Virus record (IMG/VR): IMGVR_UViG_3300025849_002481
Span: 1 to 64,000 of that record
DNA length: 64,000 bases
Source of the DNA: a virus
Reading direction: 5' to 3' (one strand)
The notes beneath the pieces are model-generated. The model did not search any database, was not told where the DNA came from, and saw nothing but the letters and a program-made list of their open reading frames with translations. Numbering within the stretch: position 1 is the stretch's first letter; each line of letters starts with the position of its first letter. Made by a program: the position numbers and the translations under genes. Positions 7,764-61,887 of this stretch are shown here, piece after piece.

Positions 7764-9584
7764 ATGTCAAAAAAAACAGGATACATAGCAGGAATTGCAA
7801 GAGGTCATAATGCTGGAGTTTGTCTTCTCAAAGACGGTGAAATTGTTTTTAGTATTGAAGAAGAAAGACTTACTAGAGCAAAGTATGACGGGACACCATT
7901 TGCAAGTATAATTAAAATATTAGACTACACTGATAAAATAGATTATTTGGTTATATCTCATACACATGCAGACGAGAATGTTACAGACTATACAGCAGAA
8001 GATCCTTACACTTCTTTAGCTAGGAAAATAGGATTAATAGAAGGAGGACACCCTTCTAAAAATCATCCACAAGTAGTTGAGTATTGGGAGCAACATCACA
8101 GAAGTCATGCAGCTTGTTCATTTTATAGGAGCGGTTTTGAAACAGCAAATATTATAATTGTTGACGGAGCAGGTACATATGCCACACGGCACGATGGTCA
8201 AACAATGTGGGAAGTTGAAAGCATATATCACGCATCTTATCCAAATAACTTTAACGAAGTATATAAACACTTTGGAGGTAATGGACCTTGGCCAACTGAA
8301 CATTATAACGAAGGCGTCGAAGTTTTAGTTGACGACAAAGCTGGCATAGTTAAAGCATATGAAGCTGTAACGCAATTTTGTGGATGGCATTCAATCGAGG
8401 CTGGCAAAACTATGGGATTATTTCCGTATGGATCTCCTAACCAAGCACCAAAAATATATGACGAAGTTAGTGCAAATAGAAATGTTATAATGCCTACATA
8501 TCCAAATGGAGCAAAAGTTAATGATGCATTATACCCTGAACTACTTGACAGAGTACAAGATCCTAAAGAACTTTGGTCAAATTTAAATGAAGATAGCAGT
8601 GAAGAAGAAATAAACAAAGTTGAACAATTACTTGCATCTGAAGATTTAACGCTATTAAATTCAAGAAGAAATATGGCATACAATGTACAAACAGAATCTC
8701 AACAACTAGTACTTGATTTAATTTTAAAGTCAATTGAAAAGACTGGAAATAAAAACATTGTAGTAAGCGGCGGATATGGATTAAATTGTGTAGCAAACTA
8801 CTTTTACTTAAAGCACTTACCAGCAGATGTTAAATTATATGTTGAACCAATTTCAACTGATGCAGGCACAGCAATAGGATCTGCATTATATCATTATCAT
8901 AAAATTACACAAGATAATAAAGTTAGACCTAAAAATGAAAACCTATATCTTGGACCTATTCAGAACATCACTAAAGATGAAATTATAGAATGTGCAAATA
9001 GATATAATGGTATTGTAGAACATAATGTTGATTATAAGAGTGTTATTAACACTATACGTGAAAAAAATATTGTAGCATTATATCAAGAACGTTGTGAAAA
9101 CGGTCCTAGAGCATTAGGTAATAGAAGTTTAATGTTTGATGCTACTGTACCTGATGGTAAAGACTTTGTTAATTTAATTAAAAAACGAGAATATTTTAGA
9201 CCGTTTGCTGCATCAGTATTACAAGAAGATGTACATGATTGGTTTGATCTAAGAGGTATGGAAGACTCTCCTAGTATGATGTATGCTGTAAACTGTCAAC
9301 CAGGAGTTCAAGAAAAGATACCTGCAGTTATTCATGTTGACGGTACTTGTAGAATACAAACTGTTACTAAAGAACAGAATGAACATTGGTATAATTTAAT
9401 TAACGAATTTAAATCACAAACCGGAGTACCTGCATTATTTAATACCAGTTTTAATTTAGGAGGCGAACCGTTAGTTGAAACTATTGATGATGCAATGCGT
9501 ACACTATACAACTCAGGAATTAATTATATATATTTTCCTACAACACAAACATTAGTAAAGATAGAACATAATGCTAGAGCCTAA
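7764..9584 (+). CDS. Carbamoyltransferase (CmcH/NodU/TobZ family)
   Basis: HHRSHA, DGAG, GKTMGL, SGGYGLNC, GPRALGNRS, RPFA, HVDGTCRIQTV, NTSFN motifs. Confidence 0.92.
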   Translation: MSKKTGYIAGIARGHNAGVCLLKDGEIVFSIEEERLTRAKYDGTPFASIIKILDYTDKIDYLVISHTHADENVTDYTAEDPYTSLARKIGLIEGGHPSKNHPQVVEYWEQHHRSHAACSFYRSGFETANIIIVDGAGTYATRHDGQTMWEVESIYHASYPNNFNEVYKHFGGNGPWPTEHYNEGVEVLVDDKAGIVKAYEAVTQFCGWHSIEAGKTMGLFPYGSPNQAPKIYDEVSANRNVIMPTYPNGAKVNDALYPELLDRVQDPKELWSNLNEDSSEEEINKVEQLLASEDLTLLNSRRNMAYNVQTESQQLVLDLILKSIEKTGNKNIVVSGGYGLNCVANYFYLKHLPADVKLYVEPISTDAGTAIGSALYHYHKITQDNKVRPKNENLYLGPIQNITKDEIIECANRYNGIVEHNVDYKSVINTIREKNIVALYQERCENGPRALGNRSLMFDATVPDGKDFVNLIKKREYFRPFAASVLQEDVHDWFDLRGMEDSPSMMYAVNCQPGVQEKIPAVIHVDGTCRIQTVTKEQNEHWYNLINEFKSQTGVPALFNTSFNLGGEPLVETIDDAMRTLYNSGINYIYFPTTQTLVKIEHNARA

Positions 9585-53014: not shown

Positions 53015-53693
53015 TAAACCATATAAGTGTGAATACTGTGGAAGCGGTTATGTAAGAGAGAAAACTCTCTTTGCTCACATGTGTGAAAAGAAACGTAGAG
53101 CGTTACAAAAAGACGAGAAGCGTGTACGCTATGGGTTTTATGCATTTGGTCGTTTTTATAAATTAAGTGCAGGCAATAAGAAAGAGAAAACGTATGAGGA
53201 TTTTTGTTCTAGTCCCTATTATAATGCTTTTGTTAAGTTTGGGAGTTTTGTTAATAACGTCCAACCTTTATATCCTGAACGATATATTGATTACGTTGTT
53301 ACAAGTGGTGTCAAACTAGATCACTGGGCACGAGATGAAATGTATGAAAAATATGTGCTACAATTTATATTAAAAGAAGATGTAACAACAGCATTAGAAC
53401 GTAGTGTAAAAACTATGTTAGACTGGGCAAGTGAAAATGAGCCAGCACCGTGGAATCATTACTTTGACCATATTAGTTTAAACAGAGCTGTATGGAATAT
53501 TAAAGACGGTAAAATATCACCTTGGCTCTTATTAAACTGTACCAGTGGCAAAACTATGCTAAGTAAGTTTAATGATGAACAACTTGAAATGGTGTATCAT
53601 GTAATCAATCCACAACATTGGGCAATGAGATTTAAAAGGTTACCTAATGATGTACAACTTGTAAAAGATGTTGCGAGAGAAAGTAATTTATGA
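52998..53693 (+). CDS. Hypothetical protein with an N-terminal C2HC zinc finger
   Basis: KPYKCEYCG..Y.....L..HMC; TTG start after SD GAGGA. Confidence 0.6.
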   Translation: MKSSSDKPYKCEYCGSGYVREKTLFAHMCEKKRRALQKDEKRVRYGFYAFGRFYKLSAGNKKEKTYEDFCSSPYYNAFVKFGSFVNNVQPLYPERYIDYVVTSGVKLDHWARDEMYEKYVLQFILKEDVTTALERSVKTMLDWASENEPAPWNHYFDHISLNRAVWNIKDGKISPWLLLNCTSGKTMLSKFNDEQLEMVYHVINPQHWAMRFKRLPNDVQLVKDVARESNL

Positions 53694-54115
53694 AAATATT
53701 AATATTTGGTTTACCAGGTAGTGGTAAGAGTACATTAGCAGAACCATTTGCTAAATTAATTGATGGCATATGGATTAACGCAGATGCAGTGCGTAAAAAA
53801 TATGATGATTGGGACTTTACTCCTGAAGGTCGTATGCGACAAGCCAATAGAATGAAACACCTAAGTGATGGTGTAGTTATGGCTGGCAAACATGCTGTTG
53901 CTGACTTTGTGTGCCCCACCGAAGAAGCACGTAAAGCATTTAATCCAGACTTTACTGTGTGGATGGATACTATTTCTCGAGGTCGCTTTGAAGATACAAA
54001 TGATATGTTTGAAACACCTCCTAAGTGTGACTATCATGTAGCGACATGGTTTGACGATACTCATGCGCAGTTGTTACAAGTGGTACAACGCTGGATGGAA
54101 CGAAATGGTAACTAA
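53690..54115 (+). CDS. cysC: Adenylylsulfate (APS) kinase-like protein
   Basis: GLPGSGKSTLA, NADAVR, DFTPEGR..Q..R, ADFVCP...R, FE.P. Confidence 0.7.
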   Translation: MKILIFGLPGSGKSTLAEPFAKLIDGIWINADAVRKKYDDWDFTPEGRMRQANRMKHLSDGVVMAGKHAVADFVCPTEEARKAFNPDFTVWMDTISRGRFEDTNDMFETPPKCDYHVATWFDDTHAQLLQVVQRWMERNGN

Positions 54116-54314
54116 GGCTAGACACTTAGCTAAAGCAGTTACATGGCGTGTTATAGCAAGTATTATCACTGCACTTATTGCATGGTATTTTGGATTACCT
54201 CCGAAAGCAGTCGGGGCTGTTTTCGTGGCTGATCTAATTATTAAGTTCGTTTTATACTACGGACACGAAAGAATATGGTACAAGTATATTAAGTTTGGAG
54301 TTAAAGATGTTTGA
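54105..54314 (+). CDS. DUF2061-like small membrane protein
   Basis: RHLAKAVTWR, K..LYY.HERIW....FG. Confidence 0.8.
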   Translation: MVTKARHLAKAVTWRVIASIITALIAWYFGLPPKAVGAVFVADLIIKFVLYYGHERIWYKYIKFGVKDV

Positions 54315-54711
54315 TCAATTTAAGCCTACAACACAGATGCTAGGTAGATGGCAACCATGGCATCCTGGGCATACAGAATTGTTTAAACGTGCCCTTGCAG
54401 AAACAGGACAAGTTTGTATTCAAATTAGAACTGTACCGCAAGACACAGATGCATCAGGCGGACGCACTATGATACAAGATGATAATCCTTTTGTGGTCAC
54501 AGACGTGCAAGAGAATATTAAAAAAGAACTTGCAAAAGAAGGCTATACATACAACGAAGAATATATTATAATGGTTGTTCCAAATATTGTAGATATTAGT
54601 TATGGTAGGGGTGTAGGATATACATTGACAGAACACGATTTAGGTGCTACAATACATAACATAAGTGCAACAAAAATTAGAAAACAAATGAGAGACGAAG
54701 GAAAACTATAG
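54307..54711 (+). CDS. HxGH nucleotidyltransferase (cytidylyltransferase-like)
   Basis: GRWQPWHPGH, DNPF, ISATKIR; SD GGAG. Confidence 0.75.
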   Translation: MFDQFKPTTQMLGRWQPWHPGHTELFKRALAETGQVCIQIRTVPQDTDASGGRTMIQDDNPFVVTDVQENIKKELAKEGYTYNEEYIIMVVPNIVDISYGRGVGYTLTEHDLGATIHNISATKIRKQMRDEGKL

Positions 54712-55214
54712 TGGAAGTAATACAAAACTTTTTATCTAAAGAAGCACATGACAAGATTAAAACTGTTATGTGCAATTATGATAAATTTGATCATGTAGAA
54801 TTTCCTTGGTACCTATCTCGAAATGTTGCTAGTACTGAGTCAAATAATGATAAAGAATTTTACATGTATCATCCGTTCTATTGGGATCATGCTCCAGCAA
54901 GTCAATGGTTTAACGAATTACTACTTCCGCTAATGCAAGAATTACAACCAAGAAGTTTGATGAGAGTTAAAGGAAACTTATATCCTGGAACAGAAACTAT
55001 ACTAGAACACGAACCCCATGTAGATGATACGTTTAGTCACAGAGGTGCTTTGTATTTTGTAAATACTAATGATGGTTATACAACACTTAATGATGGAACA
55101 AAAGTAAACTCAGTTGAGAATAGTGTATTACTATTTGATCCTAGTGAACCTCATTTTAGTTCAACGTGTACTAATGATAAGTTTCGTATAACAATTAATA
55201 TAAATTATTTTTAA
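54711..55214 (+). CDS. 2OG-Fe(II) oxygenase-like protein
   Basis: FPW, RVKGNL, PHVD, YFVNTNDG.T, H....C....RITININY. Confidence 0.75.
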   Translation: MEVIQNFLSKEAHDKIKTVMCNYDKFDHVEFPWYLSRNVASTESNNDKEFYMYHPFYWDHAPASQWFNELLLPLMQELQPRSLMRVKGNLYPGTETILEHEPHVDDTFSHRGALYFVNTNDGYTTLNDGTKVNSVENSVLLFDPSEPHFSSTCTNDKFRITININYF

Positions 55215-55300
55215 TGATAGTTGCATTTTTATTTTTATGTGTATGTTATGCACTACCATTATTAATGTTATATATGATGAATAACGAAGAGCCAAAATAA
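55214..55300 (+). CDS. 28-aa single-TM peptide (not in ORF track)
   Basis: MIVAFLFLCVCYALPLLMLYMMNNEEPK; TAATG overlaps at both ends. Confidence 0.55.
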   Translation: MIVAFLFLCVCYALPLLMLYMMNNEEPK

Positions 55301-55869
55301 TGCCAGATATTGATATAGATTTTGCAGATAGAGATGTGATATTATCACAACTAAAACATCGTGTGGCAAAACTAAATACAGGAAAGAAACACAATACTGG
55401 TGTGTATACTACAGAAATACCACACAACCCAGTAGATAACTTATCTACAATCGAACACAAGACAGCAGAAGAACGCGGTTACTTTAAACTAGATTTTTTA
55501 AATGTGTCTATATACAAAGATGTAAGAGACGAGGCACATTTACAAGAACTTATGGAAAGGGAACCACTATGGGAACTACTGGAACACGAAGACTTCAGCG
55601 AAAAAGTCTTTCATCTAAACGGGCACAACGATCTATTGAAACGATTGAAGCCCACATCGGTCAAACAATTAGCAGCAACACTAGCAATTATACGGCCAGC
55701 GAAACGACATCTAGCGAACGAGAGTTGGGAAACAATACACAAACAAGTATGGACAAAGCCAACAGACGGAACATACTATTTTAAAAAAGCACATGCGTTT
55801 GCATATGCTTTATCGGTAGTAGTACATATAAATTTATTATGTGAAGAACTTAATTCTTTGGACGCTTAA
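55300..55869 (+). CDS. Miniature DnaE (Pol III alpha)-like palm/fingers protein
   Basis: PDIDIDF, KHNTGV, GYFKLDFL, VFHL, LKP....LA..LAIIRP, FKKAHA.AYA, all in DnaE order within 189 aa. Confidence 0.85.
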   Translation: MPDIDIDFADRDVILSQLKHRVAKLNTGKKHNTGVYTTEIPHNPVDNLSTIEHKTAEERGYFKLDFLNVSIYKDVRDEAHLQELMEREPLWELLEHEDFSEKVFHLNGHNDLLKRLKPTSVKQLAATLAIIRPAKRHLANESWETIHKQVWTKPTDGTYYFKKAHAFAYALSVVVHINLLCEELNSLDA

Positions 55870-56221
55870 CTAACTGTACGTTTTTACGCTTTACTCTTTT
55901 AATTGTTAAATTATTTAAATTAACGCACGGTCCCATTGTAATTTTTACATCTTTGCTATTCATAGTTGTAATACAGTATTGAAAATGTAACATCTCTTTG
56001 CGCATAAAGATATTAATTGGAATCATTCTATTTGACTCCCACCACCATACTTCACCTAAGGATAAAAACGCTTTCTTTTCGTCAATAGTCTTTAAGTCGG
56101 TATAAACATACATTGATGTTATATACTGATCTTGATTTGCAATAATACCAACGTATTCATTACCGCCGTAAGTAACAACACTAATGAATGGGTAATTTTC
56201 TTGAATATCTTTAGTTAACAT
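55850..56221 (-). CDS. Hypothetical protein
   Basis: SD GAGGA; YPF......Y...EYVGII.N, WWWESNR.IPINIF. Confidence 0.65.
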   Translation of the reverse strand: MLTKDIQENYPFISVVTYGGNEYVGIIANQDQYITSMYVYTDLKTIDEKKAFLSLGEVWWWESNRMIPINIFMRKEMLHFQYCITTMNSKDVKITMGPCVNLNNLTIKRVKRKNVQLVKRPKN

Positions 56222-56245: not shown

Positions 56246-57034
56246 ATGCAGTTAATACCTAGATATTTAGTCGATAACAGAACAACCCTTATTAGTAATG
56301 AGGCAGGATTTATAACGGAGTATAGAAAAGTGTACACAAGACAACTACAAGTATATAAAGGCATTGATAATGTCTTACAATTTAAACTTTTAAATGCAGA
56401 TCAAAAACCAGTTGATCTTGCAAACTATACTCCCAAGTTTCAAGCATTTGACGAAGCAAAACAAATGATAGTACAGCACGATGGTGTACAAGTTACTAGC
56501 GATGGCTCAACACCAATTAAAGGATTGTTTAAAGTTACAGTTACTTCAAATGATCTATTAAATGTAAAAGAGCAATTTTTAAGTTATAGTATACATTTAA
56601 TTGATGCTAATCAAGAAGCTGTAATTACATATGTAGATCCACACTTTGAAAACAACGGATCTATTAAAGTAAGTGCTGAAGCATTTCCTGGACCAACAGA
56701 TAGTTATAGTGTTTCTACATTTACAATGGTTACTGAAGATACACCGTATTGGATATCAGAAACTGTTACAGCACAACCTGGGATTAATGGCAACGAAGCA
56801 CTACATACAGCTTCAGTCTATACTGATAGCTATGTTGGCAATGTAGTAGTCCAAGCAACATTAGACAATCAAATTATGGGTGACACTATCTGGGCAGATA
56901 TTGATACACTAACATTAACAGGCAACGAAACAGAACCTAGTCCAATTAATTTTAATGGTGTGTTTAGTCACTTACGGTTTAAAGCAACAGCAGATCCTGC
57001 AAATAAAATATCCAAAGTACTAGTAAGAAACTGA
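56246..57034 (+). CDS. Putative virion structural protein
   Basis: VYKGIDN.LQF...N.DQKPVDL, beta-rich; ATG 4 nt after TAAATA. Confidence 0.55.
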   Translation: MQLIPRYLVDNRTTLISNEAGFITEYRKVYTRQLQVYKGIDNVLQFKLLNADQKPVDLANYTPKFQAFDEAKQMIVQHDGVQVTSDGSTPIKGLFKVTVTSNDLLNVKEQFLSYSIHLIDANQEAVITYVDPHFENNGSIKVSAEAFPGPTDSYSVSTFTMVTEDTPYWISETVTAQPGINGNEALHTASVYTDSYVGNVVVQATLDNQIMGDTIWADIDTLTLTGNETEPSPINFNGVFSHLRFKATADPANKISKVLVRN

Positions 57035-57069: not shown

Positions 57070-58053
57070 ATGAGTGTAGTAAACGATATAGTTCTGACAT
57101 ACTTGCCTTCTAAAAGGAAAATGACTCCTAGCGGTTGGCTTAGTTTCAATGCTCCTTGTTGTCATCATAACGGCACAGGAGCAGACACTCGCGGTAGAGG
57201 AGGCTTAATAAGCAACTCTGATGGAGGCGTAAGTTATCATTGTTTTAATTGCGGCTTCAAAGCAAGCTGGCAACCGGGCAGGAACTTTAGTCACAAGTTA
57301 CGTAAACTTCTCCAATGGATGGGAGCACCTGACGATATAATCAACAAGGTGGCACTTGAGGTTATGAGAGAGAATGAAGGCGTCGAAGCTAAGACACTAA
57401 TAGCACAGTTGCCTACATTTAATACTGTCCCGTTGCCAGACGATGCTATTAAAATAACAGACATAACAGACTTTAACAAATATAGTATGGCTGTACTAGA
57501 ATATATGGCCAATCGTAATTTAAATACAGATGATACAAACTATTATTGGTCACCTAGTTTAGGTTACCGTGATAGATTGATTATACCGTTTTACTATGAA
57601 GGCCGAGTTGTAGGTTGGACCGGGCGTAGTGTACAAGCAGATAAGAAACCTAAGTATCTAACAGAAGTGCAACCTGGATTTGTATATGGATTAGATGAAC
57701 AAAGTTACAACAAGGCATTTGCTATAGTATGTGAAGGTCAGCTAGATGCTATTCACATAGAAGGATGCGCATTGGGCGGATCAGAAATAAACGAACAACA
57801 AGCAATGCTGTTAAATAAGTTACAGAAGCAAATTATTGTTGTTCCTGATAGAGATAGTGCAGGCAAGAAACTTGTTGAACAATCTATTGAATTAGGATTT
57901 AGTGTTAGTATGCCAGACTGGAGTACTGACGTTAATGACATTGGCGATGCTGTACAAAAATATGGAAGACTATATACACTACATAACATTTCAATTTGTG
58001 CAGAAGAATCACCGTTAAAAATTAGACTGAGAGCAAAAAAATGGTTTACATAA
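57070..58053 (+). CDS. DNA primase (gp61-like)
   Basis: APCC / YHCFNCG zinc site, RLIIPF, GR, KPKY, CEGQLDA, VPDRD.AG, ND..D TOPRIM. Confidence 0.9.
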   Translation: MSVVNDIVLTYLPSKRKMTPSGWLSFNAPCCHHNGTGADTRGRGGLISNSDGGVSYHCFNCGFKASWQPGRNFSHKLRKLLQWMGAPDDIINKVALEVMRENEGVEAKTLIAQLPTFNTVPLPDDAIKITDITDFNKYSMAVLEYMANRNLNTDDTNYYWSPSLGYRDRLIIPFYYEGRVVGWTGRSVQADKKPKYLTEVQPGFVYGLDEQSYNKAFAIVCEGQLDAIHIEGCALGGSEINEQQAMLLNKLQKQIIVVPDRDSAGKKLVEQSIELGFSVSMPDWSTDVNDIGDAVQKYGRLYTLHNISICAEESPLKIRLRAKKWFT

Positions 58054-58158: not shown

Positions 58159-59010
58159 ATGACAACATTACATACGTTCGGTTGTAGTATTACACAAGGA
58201 CATGCACTTCCAGATGTAGTTAAACCTCCACTCACAGCAGAAGAAGAAGTTGCATTAGGTAGAGAGTCACATTGGGCAGATGAACATATACTTAAACCCA
58301 GTAACTATGCTTGGCCTAAATTACTAGGCGATAAACTTAATTTGCCTGTACAAAATTATGCAAAACGTGGAGCTTGCTTTCAACAAATTGCTCGACAATG
58401 TGCTGTGTCAGCTCAAAACATTAAACCTGATGACATTGTAATAGTAATGTGGACATACTTTAGTAGGCTTACTTTACAGTGGCCAGCTAGAACAGCCGTT
58501 CCGCTTACACATATACCAGCACCAGAAAACAATTTCCTAACACGTATATTGCCAGGCTTTAATAAATTCTTTGGTCTTAGTCAACTAAAAGAACCTGATC
58601 CTTTTGACGAAACTGAAGGGAAGATTTATAACTACATACAGTCGTCTATAAATTATACATTTGATCCGTTGGTTATGTATGATCGATTCCATAACAATTT
58701 AGTTTTACAAACAATGACAGACGGTCACCTTAGATCTACTGGTGCAAAGATTATACATTTAAGTGTAGAATATCAACCATATATAGATCAACTTGAAGGT
58801 GCAAGACAAGCTCTTGATACATCATTACAGTCACCATATGAAATACCAGATCCAAATGATTGGTATTCTTTATCAGTAGATCATGATAGCTGTCGAATAA
58901 TTCATGATCCTAGTATACCGTTAACAGGTGAAAACGGACATCCTAATGTTCAACATCATATTAACTATGCTAACCATATCTATGAAAAACATTTTGGAGG
59001 AGGAGTATGA
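58159..59010 (+). CDS. SGNH/GDSL hydrolase-like protein
   Basis: FGCSITQG, WP..L...L, NYA.RG, VMWT...R, GHPN...H. Confidence 0.7.
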   Translation: MTTLHTFGCSITQGHALPDVVKPPLTAEEEVALGRESHWADEHILKPSNYAWPKLLGDKLNLPVQNYAKRGACFQQIARQCAVSAQNIKPDDIVIVMWTYFSRLTLQWPARTAVPLTHIPAPENNFLTRILPGFNKFFGLSQLKEPDPFDETEGKIYNYIQSSINYTFDPLVMYDRFHNNLVLQTMTDGHLRSTGAKIIHLSVEYQPYIDQLEGARQALDTSLQSPYEIPDPNDWYSLSVDHDSCRIIHDPSIPLTGENGHPNVQHHINYANHIYEKHFGGGV

Positions 59011-60479
59011 TCACCTGGGGGATTTCAGCTAACAGTCACGATGCTGCACTAGCAGTGTTTACAGACAACGGACTAGAGTTTGCTAGTCACGCTGAACGTT
59101 TTAGCGGAGTTAAGAATGACCCACATCTCAATAAAGAGATAATTAACTATGCACGTAAATGGGGAGAGCCAGATGAAGTTGTTTGGTACGAAAAGCCTTT
59201 TAGAAAAACTCTTAGACAGCTTCGAGCAGGACAAGGATTCAACTTTAGGGAAAACAATATTAATCGTTATCTTCGACAGTATGGGATATCTGCTCCTATT
59301 CGTACTGTTTCTCATCATCATTCCCATGCTGCTGCCGGTTATTATACTTCCCCTTTTACAGAAGCCACTGTTGTTTGTATTGACAGTATTGGAGAATTTG
59401 AAACTCTTACCATATGGGAAGGAGAAGGAACTAGACTTAAAAAAGTCTATTCACAAGGATACCCCAACTCTATCGGACTTTGGTATTCGGCTCTCACACA
59501 AAGAGTAGGACTAAAACCTAACGAAGATGAATATATACTAATGGGTATGGCCGCTTATGGAGACCCTCAACGTTTATGGAACGACATGTATGAAATGTTT
59601 GATTACATTGACGGACCTGACATTAGATTTAAAGAGAACTTACACCGAGGGTGCAAGCAATGGAAGCCAGAGCTTACTACAGAACAAGATATGTTTGACA
59701 TTGCAGCTGTAACCCAAAAGACATATGAGTTTACCCTAGAGCAAATATTGGCATGGGCCAAGAAGAACACAAAGAGCAATAACCTAGTTCTTATGGGAGG
59801 GTGTGCATTAAACTGTAGTGCTAACCATTTAGCCTATAAGTATTTTGATGACGTATGGATTATGCCAAACCCGGGCGATGCAGGATCAGCAATAGGGTCA
59901 GTATTAGCTCATAAGAAAGAACACATGCCCATGGATCATGCATACCTGGGTTACAACATTGAAGGAGACTACCCAGTTGAAGAAGCAATCAGCGAACTTA
60001 AGAAAACGGGAATCGTGGGCGTTGCGAATGGTCGGGCGGAGTTTGGCCCTAGGGCTTTTGGCAATCGTAGCCTACTTGCTGATCCCAGGGGAAGGGATAT
60101 CAAAAGCAAAGTCAATGACATTAAGAAAAGACAACAGTTCAGACCCTTTGCTCCCGTGGTGCTCGCAGAACACGCAAGCAAAAACTTCAAAGGACACTAT
60201 AATAACTATATGCAGTTTACCTCCAAGTGCAAACATCCATTCCTGTATCCTGCCATCACCCACGTGGACGGCACAAGTAGAGTACAAACTGTTGAAGCAG
60301 ATGGAAGCGGGATTAGAAGATTGTTAGAAGCATGGTATGAGGAAACAGGCTGTCCAATGTTGTTGAACACTTCGCTCAATATCAAGGGCAAGCCCATGGT
60401 AAATAACTTGACAGATGCACAAGAGTTTGCTATAATGTATAATGTAAAAGTATGTACAAAGGCTACAGATGACAACTAG
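59007..60479 (+). CDS. Second carbamoyltransferase (CmcH/NodU family)
   Basis: HDAA, HHHSHAA, DSIGE, EYILMG.A.YG, GGCALNC, GDAG, EFGPRAFGNRS, RPFAP, HVDGTSRVQT, NTSLN. Confidence 0.92.
   Translation: MITWGISANSHDAALAVFTDNGLEFASHAERFSGVKNDPHLNKEIINYARKWGEPDEVVWYEKPFRKTLRQLRAGQGFNFRENNINRYLRQYGISAPIRTVSHHHSHAAAGYYTSPFTEATVVCIDSIGEFETLTIWEGEGTRLKKVYSQGYPNSIGLWYSALTQRVGLKPNEDEYILMGMAAYGDPQRLWNDMYEMFDYIDGPDIRFKENLHRGCKQWKPELTTEQDMFDIAAVTQKTYEFTLEQILAWAKKNTKSNNLVLMGGCALNCSANHLAYKYFDDVWIMPNPGDAGSAIGSVLAHKKEHMPMDHAYLGYNIEGDYPVEEAISELKKTGIVGVANGRAEFGPRAFGNRSLLADPRGRDIKSKVNDIKKRQQFRPFAPVVLAEHASKNFKGHYNNYMQFTSKCKHPFLYPAITHVDGTSRVQTVEADGSGIRRLLEAWYEETGCPMLLNTSLNIKGKPMVNNLTDAQEFAIMYNVKVCTKATDDN
60408..60436 (+). 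promoter_or_regulatory. Sigma70-type promoter for the helicase gene, embedded in the upstream CDS
   Basis: TTGACA-17 bp-TATAAT. Confidence 0.75.
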
Positions 60480-61887
60480 ACAAAATACAGATTATGGTTA
60501 TGATATACAGAAAGTATATCTAGAAATGTTTATGACAGATGCTGAAAGTTTTATACGCTGTCAAGGTGTATTTGATCCAAAGACATTTGATAGACGACTA
60601 CAGTTGCCAGCTGAATTTATTAAAACATATGTAGAAGAACATAATGCGTTACCTACATTTGATATAGTAAATGCAGCCGCAGATGTTAATTTAAAACACC
60701 CAGGTGATTTAGCAGAGAATCACTATGATTGGTTGTTACAAGACTTTGAAACATTCAGTAAACACAAAGCACTAGAGGCTGCTATTCTTAAGAGTGCAGA
60801 CTTACTTGAATCAGGTGAGTATGGTGCGTGTGAAGATTTAGTTAAACAGGCTGTGCAGATTGGATTGCAAAAAGACTTAGGCACAGACTATTGGGCTGAC
60901 CCTAGAGCAAGGTTGATGGCTATCAAAGATAAGAACGGACAGATATCTACAGGCTGGCCTACACTAGATAAGAAACTGTTTGGCGGATTCAACAGAGGCG
61001 AACTGAATATCTTTGCAGGAGGTTCAGGCTCTGGTAAGAGTTTGTTTATGGCAAACTTAGGTGTGAACTGGTGTATGCAAGGATTAAACGTAATGTACTT
61101 AACGTTTGAACTTTCAGAGAACTTAGTTAGTATGCGTCTTGATAGTATGACAACAGATATTCCAAGTAGAGATATTTTTAAAAGTATCGATGATGTTGAA
61201 ATGAAAGTCAAGATGATTGGTAAGAAGAATGGTGCATTCCAAGTTAAGTACATGCCTACAGGTAAAACAGCAAATGATGTACGTGCATACTTAAAAGAAT
61301 ATGAAATTAAAACAGGCAAGAAAGTAGATGTACTATTGATTGACTACTTAGATCTTATGCATCCAATTGGTCAAAAGATTAGTGCAGAGAACTTGTTTGT
61401 AAAAGACAAGTATGTATCAGAAGAACTACGTAACTTGGCAATGGAATTAAACACAATCTTTGTTACAGCATCACAGCTGAATAGAAGTAGTGTAGAAGAG
61501 ATTGAGTTTGATCATTCGCATATTAGTGGTGGTATATCTAAGATCAATACAGCAGATAATTTGATTGGTATCTTTACAAGTCGTGCTATGCGTGAGCGCG
61601 GACGCTATCAAATACAGTTAATGAAAACTAGAAGTAGTAGTGGCGTGGGTATGAAAGTTGATCTAGGGTTTGATGTAGATACATTGCGTATTGTAGACCT
61701 TGGCGAAGATGAACAAGATGGCGGCTCAGCTACACAGGGTAACGGAGCAAGCTCAATTGTTAATGCGTTAAAGCGTACTAACACTCCAAGTGAATCACCA
61801 GAAGAAGGTGTTCCGGCAGGTAAGATACGTGCTGAAACTGATAGCACAAAGCTAAGAGCGTTTCTTAATAATCTTGACGGCGAGTAG
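60469..61887 (+). CDS. Replicative DnaB-like helicase (gp41-like)
   Basis: GGSGSGKS, FELSE, IDYLDLM, SEELR.LA.E, TASQLNR, MKTR. Confidence 0.93.
   Translation: MTTRQNTDYGYDIQKVYLEMFMTDAESFIRCQGVFDPKTFDRRLQLPAEFIKTYVEEHNALPTFDIVNAAADVNLKHPGDLAENHYDWLLQDFETFSKHKALEAAILKSADLLESGEYGACEDLVKQAVQIGLQKDLGTDYWADPRARLMAIKDKNGQISTGWPTLDKKLFGGFNRGELNIFAGGSGSGKSLFMANLGVNWCMQGLNVMYLTFELSENLVSMRLDSMTTDIPSRDIFKSIDDVEMKVKMIGKKNGAFQVKYMPTGKTANDVRAYLKEYEIKTGKKVDVLLIDYLDLMHPIGQKISAENLFVKDKYVSEELRNLAMELNTIFVTASQLNRSSVEEIEFDHSHISGGISKINTADNLIGIFTSRAMRERGRYQIQLMKTRSSSGVGMKVDLGFDVDTLRIVDLGEDEQDGGSATQGNGASSIVNALKRTNTPSESPEEGVPAGKIRAETDSTKLRAFLNNLDGE

Follow-up and report, generated by a model that had tools for sequence, protein, structure and literature searches.

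A marine jumbo phage gene for the probable C-terminal unit of a split minimal DNA polymerase III alpha

A 189-aa gene of an uncultured marine phage probably specifies one subunit, the C-terminal one, of the split minimal DNA polymerase III (Pol III) alpha that group 2.2 (RaK2/PA5oct/Atu_ph07-like) jumbo phages encode in two genes, with the pair of gene products forming an active short-range polymerase. The components of this reading were not equally secure. The identity of the gene and the two-subunit architecture, taken jointly, were considered very likely, while sequence features inclined us only slightly towards templated DNA synthesis by the pair. The gene is located in a stretch of 64,000 nucleotides (positions 1 to 64,000 of IMG/VR record IMGVR_UViG_3300025849_002481), referred to here as the window; its product is termed the C-half and the partner protein the N-half. 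This split enzyme has been described before, from the sequences of group 2.2 jumbo phages (Iyer, Anantharaman, Krishnan, Burroughs, Aravind 2021, Viruses 13:63; PMC7824862). As the split arrangement is already published, the window gene is a new marine case and not a new kind of gene.

The gene and the motifs of its product were located at the following positions, with residue numbers referring to the C-half.

55300..55869, plus strand: C-half gene of a split minimal Pol III alpha-like enzyme, the putative Mg2+-, dNTP- and template-binding unit; 189 aa, ATG start, TAA stop
55306..55320, plus strand: D3-I-D5-I-D7, the DxD metal-binding strand (E. coli D401/D403 region), assigned by alignment to E. 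coli 398-419 and by conservation
55390..55401, plus strand: H31-N-T-G34, re-entry of the chain into the palm where the DnaE thumb is missing; H31 and G34 96% conserved
55486..55494, plus strand: K63-L-D65, the third catalytic Asp and the Lys before it (E. coli K553/D555 region), aligned to VKFDFLG; 100% conserved
55693..55704, plus strand: R132-P133-A-K135, fingers motif (E. coli ALFRPG), aligned to 2hnh 636-641
55783..55794, plus strand: K162-K-A-H165, fingers motif (E. coli N757-K758-S759-H760), aligned to 2hnh 740-769

An earlier, sequence-only reading of this DNA had listed six DnaE motifs in colinear order, and all six were present in the translation in that order: PDIDIDF (residues 2-8), KHNTGV (30-35), GYFKLDFL (60-67), VFHL (103-106), LAIIRP (128-133) and FKKAHAFAYA (161-170). 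The E. coli counterparts proposed in that reading were checked against PDB sequences using a family profile built from alignment A2, and they were recovered by alignment of the profile to E. coli alpha (2hnh) in three blocks, namely, 398-419 (PDFDVDF), 539-641 (VKFDFLG, VFQLES and ALFRPG) and 740-769 (GYGFNKSHSAAYAL). The profile alignment placed H165 of the C-half at the position of E. coli H760, the proposed steric-gate His, which has been modelled as a steric gate against rNTPs in E. coli alpha (PMC8485763). A search of PHROGs with the C-half matched phrog_11778, annotated 'DNA polymerase', over residues 3-184 (E 1.4e-61). The sole Pfam match of the 189-aa protein was to PF17657 (fingers), at 16.3 bits and hence under the 22-bit cut-off. 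The GRGS/ERFLN segment, which had been reported as absent from the ORF, was found neither there nor anywhere in the whole 75,720-base record, and a Pfam profile search of the same record gave no match to PF07733. Small shares of the stretch were present in six metatranscriptome runs, but within the C-half gene these amounted only to contig pieces of ∼40 to 110 bases with 90 to 99% likeness; as libraries of this type can carry DNA, the pieces do not establish transcription.

An AlphaFold2 model of the C-half, generated from alignment A2, had a pLDDT of 96.2 and a pTM of 0.88. When this model was compared with the PDB by Foldseek, the top 14 matches were all family C polymerases. The comparison with the DnaE palm that the sequence-only reading had proposed was performed with VIA-align, and Z scores of 9.7 for Mycobacterium tuberculosis DnaE1 (5lew; 187 residues aligned, rmsd 3.8), 9.7 and 9.5 for Thermus aquaticus (3e0d and 2hpi, respectively), 9.0 for E. 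coli (2hnh) and 7.3 for PolC (9qrn) were obtained, compared with 3.2 or less for the best unrelated fold. In the DnaE matches, 181 to 187 of the 189 residues were aligned with an rmsd of 3.6 to 4.0, indicating that the predicted fold is a DnaE palm plus fingers. Residues 1-187 of the model corresponded to residues 400-784 of E. coli alpha; thus, through internal deletions, 189 residues of the C-half span what requires 385 in the E. coli protein. The thumb stretch between the DxD and third-Asp strands was reduced from ∼120 residues in E. coli to ∼33, and the stretch between the RPG and KSH finger motifs was reduced from ∼100 residues to ∼12. This mapping agreed with the earlier statement that the PHP, thumb, much of the fingers, clamp-binding and OB regions are absent. 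When the domain limits reported by Lamers et al. in 2006 are applied, the C-half lacks the PHP domain and what remains of the fingers, along with the OB and clamp-binding regions. Overall, the motif set, the family match and the DnaE structure match far exceed chance.

Relatives of the C-half were widespread. A tblastn search detected it in 94 phage records, all of jumbo phages, with identities of 54% for PA5oct-like phages, 52% for Phosso, 49% for Atu_ph07 and 38% for RaK2/K64-1/121Q-like phages. At least 548 C-half loci were present in IMG/VR, and at least 8,000 metagenome relatives of similar length, many of them marine, were found in a large protein collection; among marine giant phages the family is very abundant. 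Across 1.84 billion cluster representatives, a complete HMMER pass yielded 426 matches, nearly all of ∼190 aa. Conservation was assessed on 84 representatives clustered at 50% identity. In this sample K63, D65, R132 and P133 were 100% conserved, D3, D5 and D7 were 98% conserved (and invariant in alignment A2), and conservation of H31 and G34 (96%), H165 (95%), K135 (92%) and K162 (90%) was also high. Variable loss of the aspartates, which would have counted against a functional polymerase core, was thus not seen at positions conserved in 98 to 100% of representatives. In comparisons of the C-half with 67 marine relatives, in which synonymous sites were close to saturated, dN/dS had a median of 0.114 and did not exceed 0.213. 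A median of ∼0.11 does not indicate the neutral evolution that had been raised as the alternative. The start of the protein was constant, with 65 of 75 sequences beginning MPDIDIDFA, as was the length of the gene. These results indicated that the C-half gene is real and strongly conserved.

One of the two possibilities offered in the sequence-only reading was a minimal C-family polymerase split naturally into two genes, of which this is one, with the GRGS half lying elsewhere in the genome. The results support this possibility. A short ORF of the expected type was found in relatives, and the PF07733 spans of the two proteins were complementary. The N-half was a separate ORF of 169 to 185 aa, ending ...GVGRGSS...EFL[RN], which matched positions 20-95 of PF07733 above the cut-off. 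In the marine relative G002 (236,751 bases), the C-half of which is 75% identical to that of the window, a 185-aa N-half ending ...GVGRGSS...REFLR matched PF07733 positions 20-94 and was encoded 122 kb from the C-half; the C-half of the same record covered positions 96-196, placing the break point at 95/96. A PF07733 search of the complete genome of Phosso identified a 177-aa N-half (end ...GVGRGSS...DEFLN; model positions 21-95, 46 bits) at a distance of 224 kb from the C-half, and both Phosso halves are annotated 'DnaE-like DNA polymerase III alpha'. Both halves were also present in the marine relative G006 (275,366 bases), ∼120 kb apart, and in PA5oct, as EST35_0220 and EST35_0288. Hence, every sufficiently long or complete relative that was checked (G002, G006, Phosso and PA5oct) carried both halves. 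With 494 loci in IMG/VR, the N-half occurred there at a frequency similar to that of the C-half, and the host-genus tallies of the phage records were nearly equal for the two.

The N-half profile aligned to residues 271-392 of E. coli alpha, from the first residue of the palm through ERFL. N-halves end with EFLR(D) and C-halves begin with MPDIDIDF. The residue aligned to R390 of the E. coli ERFLN motif was Glu in the mini family, so that the triphosphate pocket is not a simple copy of that of E. coli. The record containing the window comprises 75,720 bases and is 21% complete according to CheckV, and the absence of an N-half from a fragment of this size is expected given the ∼120-kb spacing seen in relatives. 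As the record is 21% complete, the N-half of the window's own phage is inferred from relatives that are 75 to 78% identical. The surroundings of the N-half were themselves conserved: in G002, Phosso and PA5oct, the next genes after it encode a small conserved protein and, beyond that, a GroES-like co-chaperonin (loci L084 1759-2553, L003 5777-6592 and L176 1539-2208). The GroES-like gene of G002 was followed by a 119-aa ORF that, by eye, may be MazG-like.

Co-folding of the two halves, another comparison proposed in the sequence-only reading, paired the window's C-half (alignment A2) with an N-half of marine origin (alignment A3). An ipSAE of 0.92 was obtained in three of three runs, compared with 0.01 for the best of three controls; the mark applied to such co-folds is attained by 2 of 110 mismatched pairs, compared with 58 of 80 solved complexes. 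The runs shared at least 97% of contacts, and the pLDDT of the partner was 92. The contacts with the least predicted error placed W150-G151 in the GRGS strand of the N-half on residues 6-8 in the DxD strand of the C-half, a placement resembling that in a Pol-beta-type palm. The co-fold supports binding of the halves without demonstrating it, and the pass may reflect recall of, or likeness to, solved single-chain DnaE structures. When folded alone, the N-half had a pLDDT of 58.5, with values below 50 in the GRGS region, from a shallow alignment (70 to 87% identity); due to this shallowness, the solo model is uninformative with respect to folding upon binding.

Natural single-chain forms of the two halves were detected among metagenome proteins. 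One of these, P0208 (375 aa), was found in the HMMER pass and two others, P0272 and P0273 (both 376 aa), in a further search; the latter were 78 to 81% identical to P0208 and came from separate contigs and separate sources. Residues 15-180 of P0208 corresponded to the whole N-half (31% identity, E 9e-23) and residues 189-370 to the C-half of the window (37% identity, E 1e-37), with a linker of 8 residues between the two parts of the fused forms. In a FastTree phylogeny of C-halves, rooted on the blocks of one bacterial DnaE, the fused clade (support of 0.998) was sister to four split C-halves (0.977) deep within the split forms. The single-chain forms consequently look to have been derived from split forms by secondary fusion, as judged from this nesting in a tree whose backbone support is weak. 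No IMG/VR locus was found for the fused form, and a metagenome scan for it returned just one C-half locus and two ordinary 1160-aa bacterial dnaE genes (L173 and L174). Single-chain forms are not mentioned in the available part of Iyer et al. 2021 (PMC7824862).

Two odd hybrids were also encountered. The only longer match, P0121 (425 aa), combined a reverse-transcriptase-like N terminus with a C-half fragment devoid of the DxD strand on a 1405-base contig and was rejected as a chimera. In P0236 (233 aa), from a short contig, the first 105 residues of the C-half were joined to a tail that by eye was pseudouridine-synthase-like. Both proteins are probably assembly chimeras or frameshifts.

The window carried genes typical of a T4-related giant myovirus, encoding a sheath, a gp15-like protein, a T4-type terminase, a DnaG-type primase and a DnaB-type helicase. 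The following features were located around the C-half gene.

53690-55214, plus strand: block of small genes separating the C-half from a 254-aa zinc-finger-like gene; it comprises one P-loop kinase-like gene (AAA_33/APS_kinase), one gene of 87 aa, one with weak likeness to a cytidylyltransferase and one of 167 aa without a family
55850..56221, minus strand: 123-aa ORF that shares 20 bases with the 3' end of the C-half gene; Phosso, Paride and RaK2 have homologues with matching position and orientation
56246..57034, plus strand: 262-aa protein with homologues annotated as virion structural; weak BppU_N match; same position in Phosso, Paride and RaK2
57070..58053, plus strand: DnaG/gp61-type primase; Toprim_2 E 2e-6, DNAG_N E 3e-5
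60469..61887, plus strand: DnaB/gp41-type replicative helicase; DnaB_C E 8.2e-21; located after the primase in relatives

The T4-type primase and helicase noted in the sequence-only reading as lying nearby were thus both identified downstream of the C-half gene (57070-58053 and 60469-61887). The order of C-half (plus strand), reverse ORF of 120 to 130 aa, virion protein of 240 to 325 aa, primase and DnaB/gp41 helicase was common to the window, Phosso, Paride (PA5oct-like) and RaK2, and was hence retained down to a C-half identity of 38%. Homologues of the 123-aa reverse ORF in Phosso, Paride and RaK2 exhibited 37 to 50% identity (E 1e-25 to 1e-43), and this ORF had no Pfam match. The primase was also 1 to 3 kb downstream of the C-half in these three phages. 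This synteny with primase and helicase may represent an inherited T4-like order instead of a functional link. A full family B polymerase was present elsewhere in the genome in the relatives G002 and Phosso, and none was detected within the window's fragment.

Between the primase and the helicase of the window were a 283-aa gene and a carbamoyltransferase gene. The latter (59007-60479, plus strand) was the second of two NodU/CmcH-type carbamoyltransferase genes with strong Carbam_trans_N/Carbam_trans_C matches, the other being at 7764-9584 (plus strand), and it separates a primase and a helicase that are adjacent in relatives. Upstream of the C-half, the sequence was variable even among close relatives, and no conserved promoter was found across the close relatives compared. 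Among close relatives, the 254-aa gene directly adjoined the C-half in L004, L007, L016, L023 and L042, and a peptide-deformylase-like gene did so in others; from these comparisons, the upstream site looks like an accessory-gene hot spot. In RaK2, ORF117 (L171 721-1542), annotated 'DNA polymerase exonuclease subunit', was ∼4.4 kb upstream of the C-half, and an epsilon-like subunit is mentioned in the Atu_ph07 paper. Either protein could be a proofreader for the mini polymerase or could belong with another enzyme.

A working scheme for the enzyme can be proposed. The C-half would contribute the DxD strand and the third Asp of a Pol-beta-type palm, together with two finger motifs, which in DnaE are directed towards the template and the incoming dNTP. 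The C-half would pair non-covalently, with no intein involved, with a protein of ∼185 residues encoded ∼120 kb away, and this N-half would add the first palm strand and the helix with the GVGRGSS triphosphate-binding motif. Together, the chains would constitute an enzyme of ∼370 residues with a complete two-metal active site, predicted to act as a dNTP-selective, template-directed but poorly processive DNA polymerase. Templated addition of dNTPs is favoured by the retention of the finger motifs and of a His at the position of E. coli H760, and synthesis is expected to be short-range because thumb and clamp-binding region are missing. It is uncertain whether templated synthesis could reach a useful length, since the pair would operate without the thumb and all of the clamp- and DNA-binding accessory domains of DnaE. 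A reasonable guess is that the pair works beside the B-family replicase, whether at the fork, in primer extension or hand-off, or in repair and the filling of gaps. A bolder proposal, made by analogy with DnaE beside PolC in Bacillus or Pol alpha in eukaryotes, is that the ∼370-residue pair or the 375-aa single chain suffices on its own as a DNA polymerase, the smallest in the C family, which extends the RNA primers of the primase before handing over to the B-family replicase. We regard this proposal as tentative and on the whole unlikely; if it is true, such phages would have two polymerases at one fork, an enzyme of bacterial type and another of archaeo-eukaryotic type.

The absence of the thumb and of every accessory DNA- and clamp-binding domain of DnaE would also fit a two-subunit enzyme that has been repurposed as a Pol-beta-fold nucleotidyltransferase, catalysing untemplated 3' tailing, addition of nucleotides to a primer or protein, or synthesis of a nucleotide signal. 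The difference at the position aligned to R390 points in the same direction, as does the complete B-family replicase of the relatives, given which a second replicase is not obviously needed. Such a change of function leaves unexplained the 90 to 100% conservation of the template- and dNTP-facing finger motifs RP.K and KK[SA]H, including the steric-gate His, and the conserved neighbours were a primase and a helicase, with no signalling or defence context seen. A nucleotidyltransferase was judged to be unlikely, and a split minimal polymerase is the preferred reading.

This preference extends to the question of whether the ORF has a partner at all. If the ORF were what is left of a full-length dnaE in decay, or encoded a protein that functions by itself without an N-half, this would account for the lack of an N-half on the window's own record and for a Pfam score below the cut-off for the C-half alone. 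However, the record is just 21% complete, G002, G006, Phosso and PA5oct all have both halves, and the dN/dS of ∼0.11, the near invariance of catalytic residues at 50%-identity clustering and the constancy of gene length and of the MPDIDIDF start are contrary to decay, making either version very unlikely. The manner in which the halves combine can be considered in the same way. Natural split inteins are classically associated with DnaE, and the halves might accordingly be joined post-translationally by a split intein as in cyanobacterial DnaE. The N-half alignment stops at E. coli residue 392, whereas the C-half starts at 398 from its second residue, so that ∼6 DnaE residues are unaccounted for at the break and there is no room for intein halves; moreover, the C-half starts MPD, a context that offers no nucleophilic Cys, Ser or Thr. 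Joining by an intein is contradicted by these alignments and has a negligible probability.

With bacterial DnaE (2hnh, 2hpi/3e0d and 5lew) and PolC, the C-half shares a Pol-beta-type palm, the three Asp residues, the Lys before the third Asp and the RPG and KSH finger motifs in colinear order. Unlike bacterial DnaE, it has no thumb, PHP, clamp-binding, OB or tau-binding region, it comprises 189 aa as opposed to >1000, the first palm segment is on another polypeptide, and the full PF07733 + PF17657 + PF02811 architecture is not present in the C-half. The family would thus illustrate the extent to which a C-family polymerase can be reduced in its catalytic core, leaving a palm and two finger motifs on two chains. 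It also differs from the usual Pol-beta-fold nucleotidyltransferases, in that the G[GS] strand-helix is not in the same chain as the DxD strand but, in relatives, is supplied in trans by the N-half. The encoding of DnaE by two distant genes is shared with the split DnaE of cyanobacteria, from which the phage pair appears to differ in having another break point, no intein halves and halves that remain separate chains. Distant homology to full-length phage DnaE was detected (phrog_405, E 1e-5) along with weak tblastn matches of the N-half. Full-length phage DnaE proteins (phrog_405; group 3.2 jumbo, Bacillus and Gordonia phages) are, in the account of Iyer et al., single chains of ∼1100 to 1200 residues with a PHP domain that act as the main replicase (PMC7824862), whereas the enzyme of the window would be accessory, split and minimal.

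The closest known systems are those of group 2.2. The Atu_ph07 paper had earlier drawn attention to a gene for a 'DNA polymerase III alpha subunit' that RaK2-like phages have in common, and Iyer et al. 2021 put the split minimal enzyme forward as a model for the ancestral module of Pol III (PMC7824862). Literature searches returned no enzymatic, genetic or structural experiment on any member of the split mini-Pol III alpha family, and no description of it later than that of 2021. The present analysis extends that account (PMC7824862) with the exact break point, with the 375-aa forms in which both halves are naturally fused, and with models of the fold and of the co-fold. The window copy differs from those of the group 2.2 phages described there in coming from an uncultured marine lineage, one of great abundance in metagenomes, and in having its N-half beyond the fragment. 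In all other respects compared it resembles them: the C-half belongs to the same family, being 38 to 54% identical to the copies of RaK2, Atu_ph07, Phosso and PA5oct; it has the same start at the DxD strand, the same length and, in relatives, the same distant N-terminal partner; and it is found in the same company, with a T4-type primase and helicase and, in relatives, a B-family polymerase.
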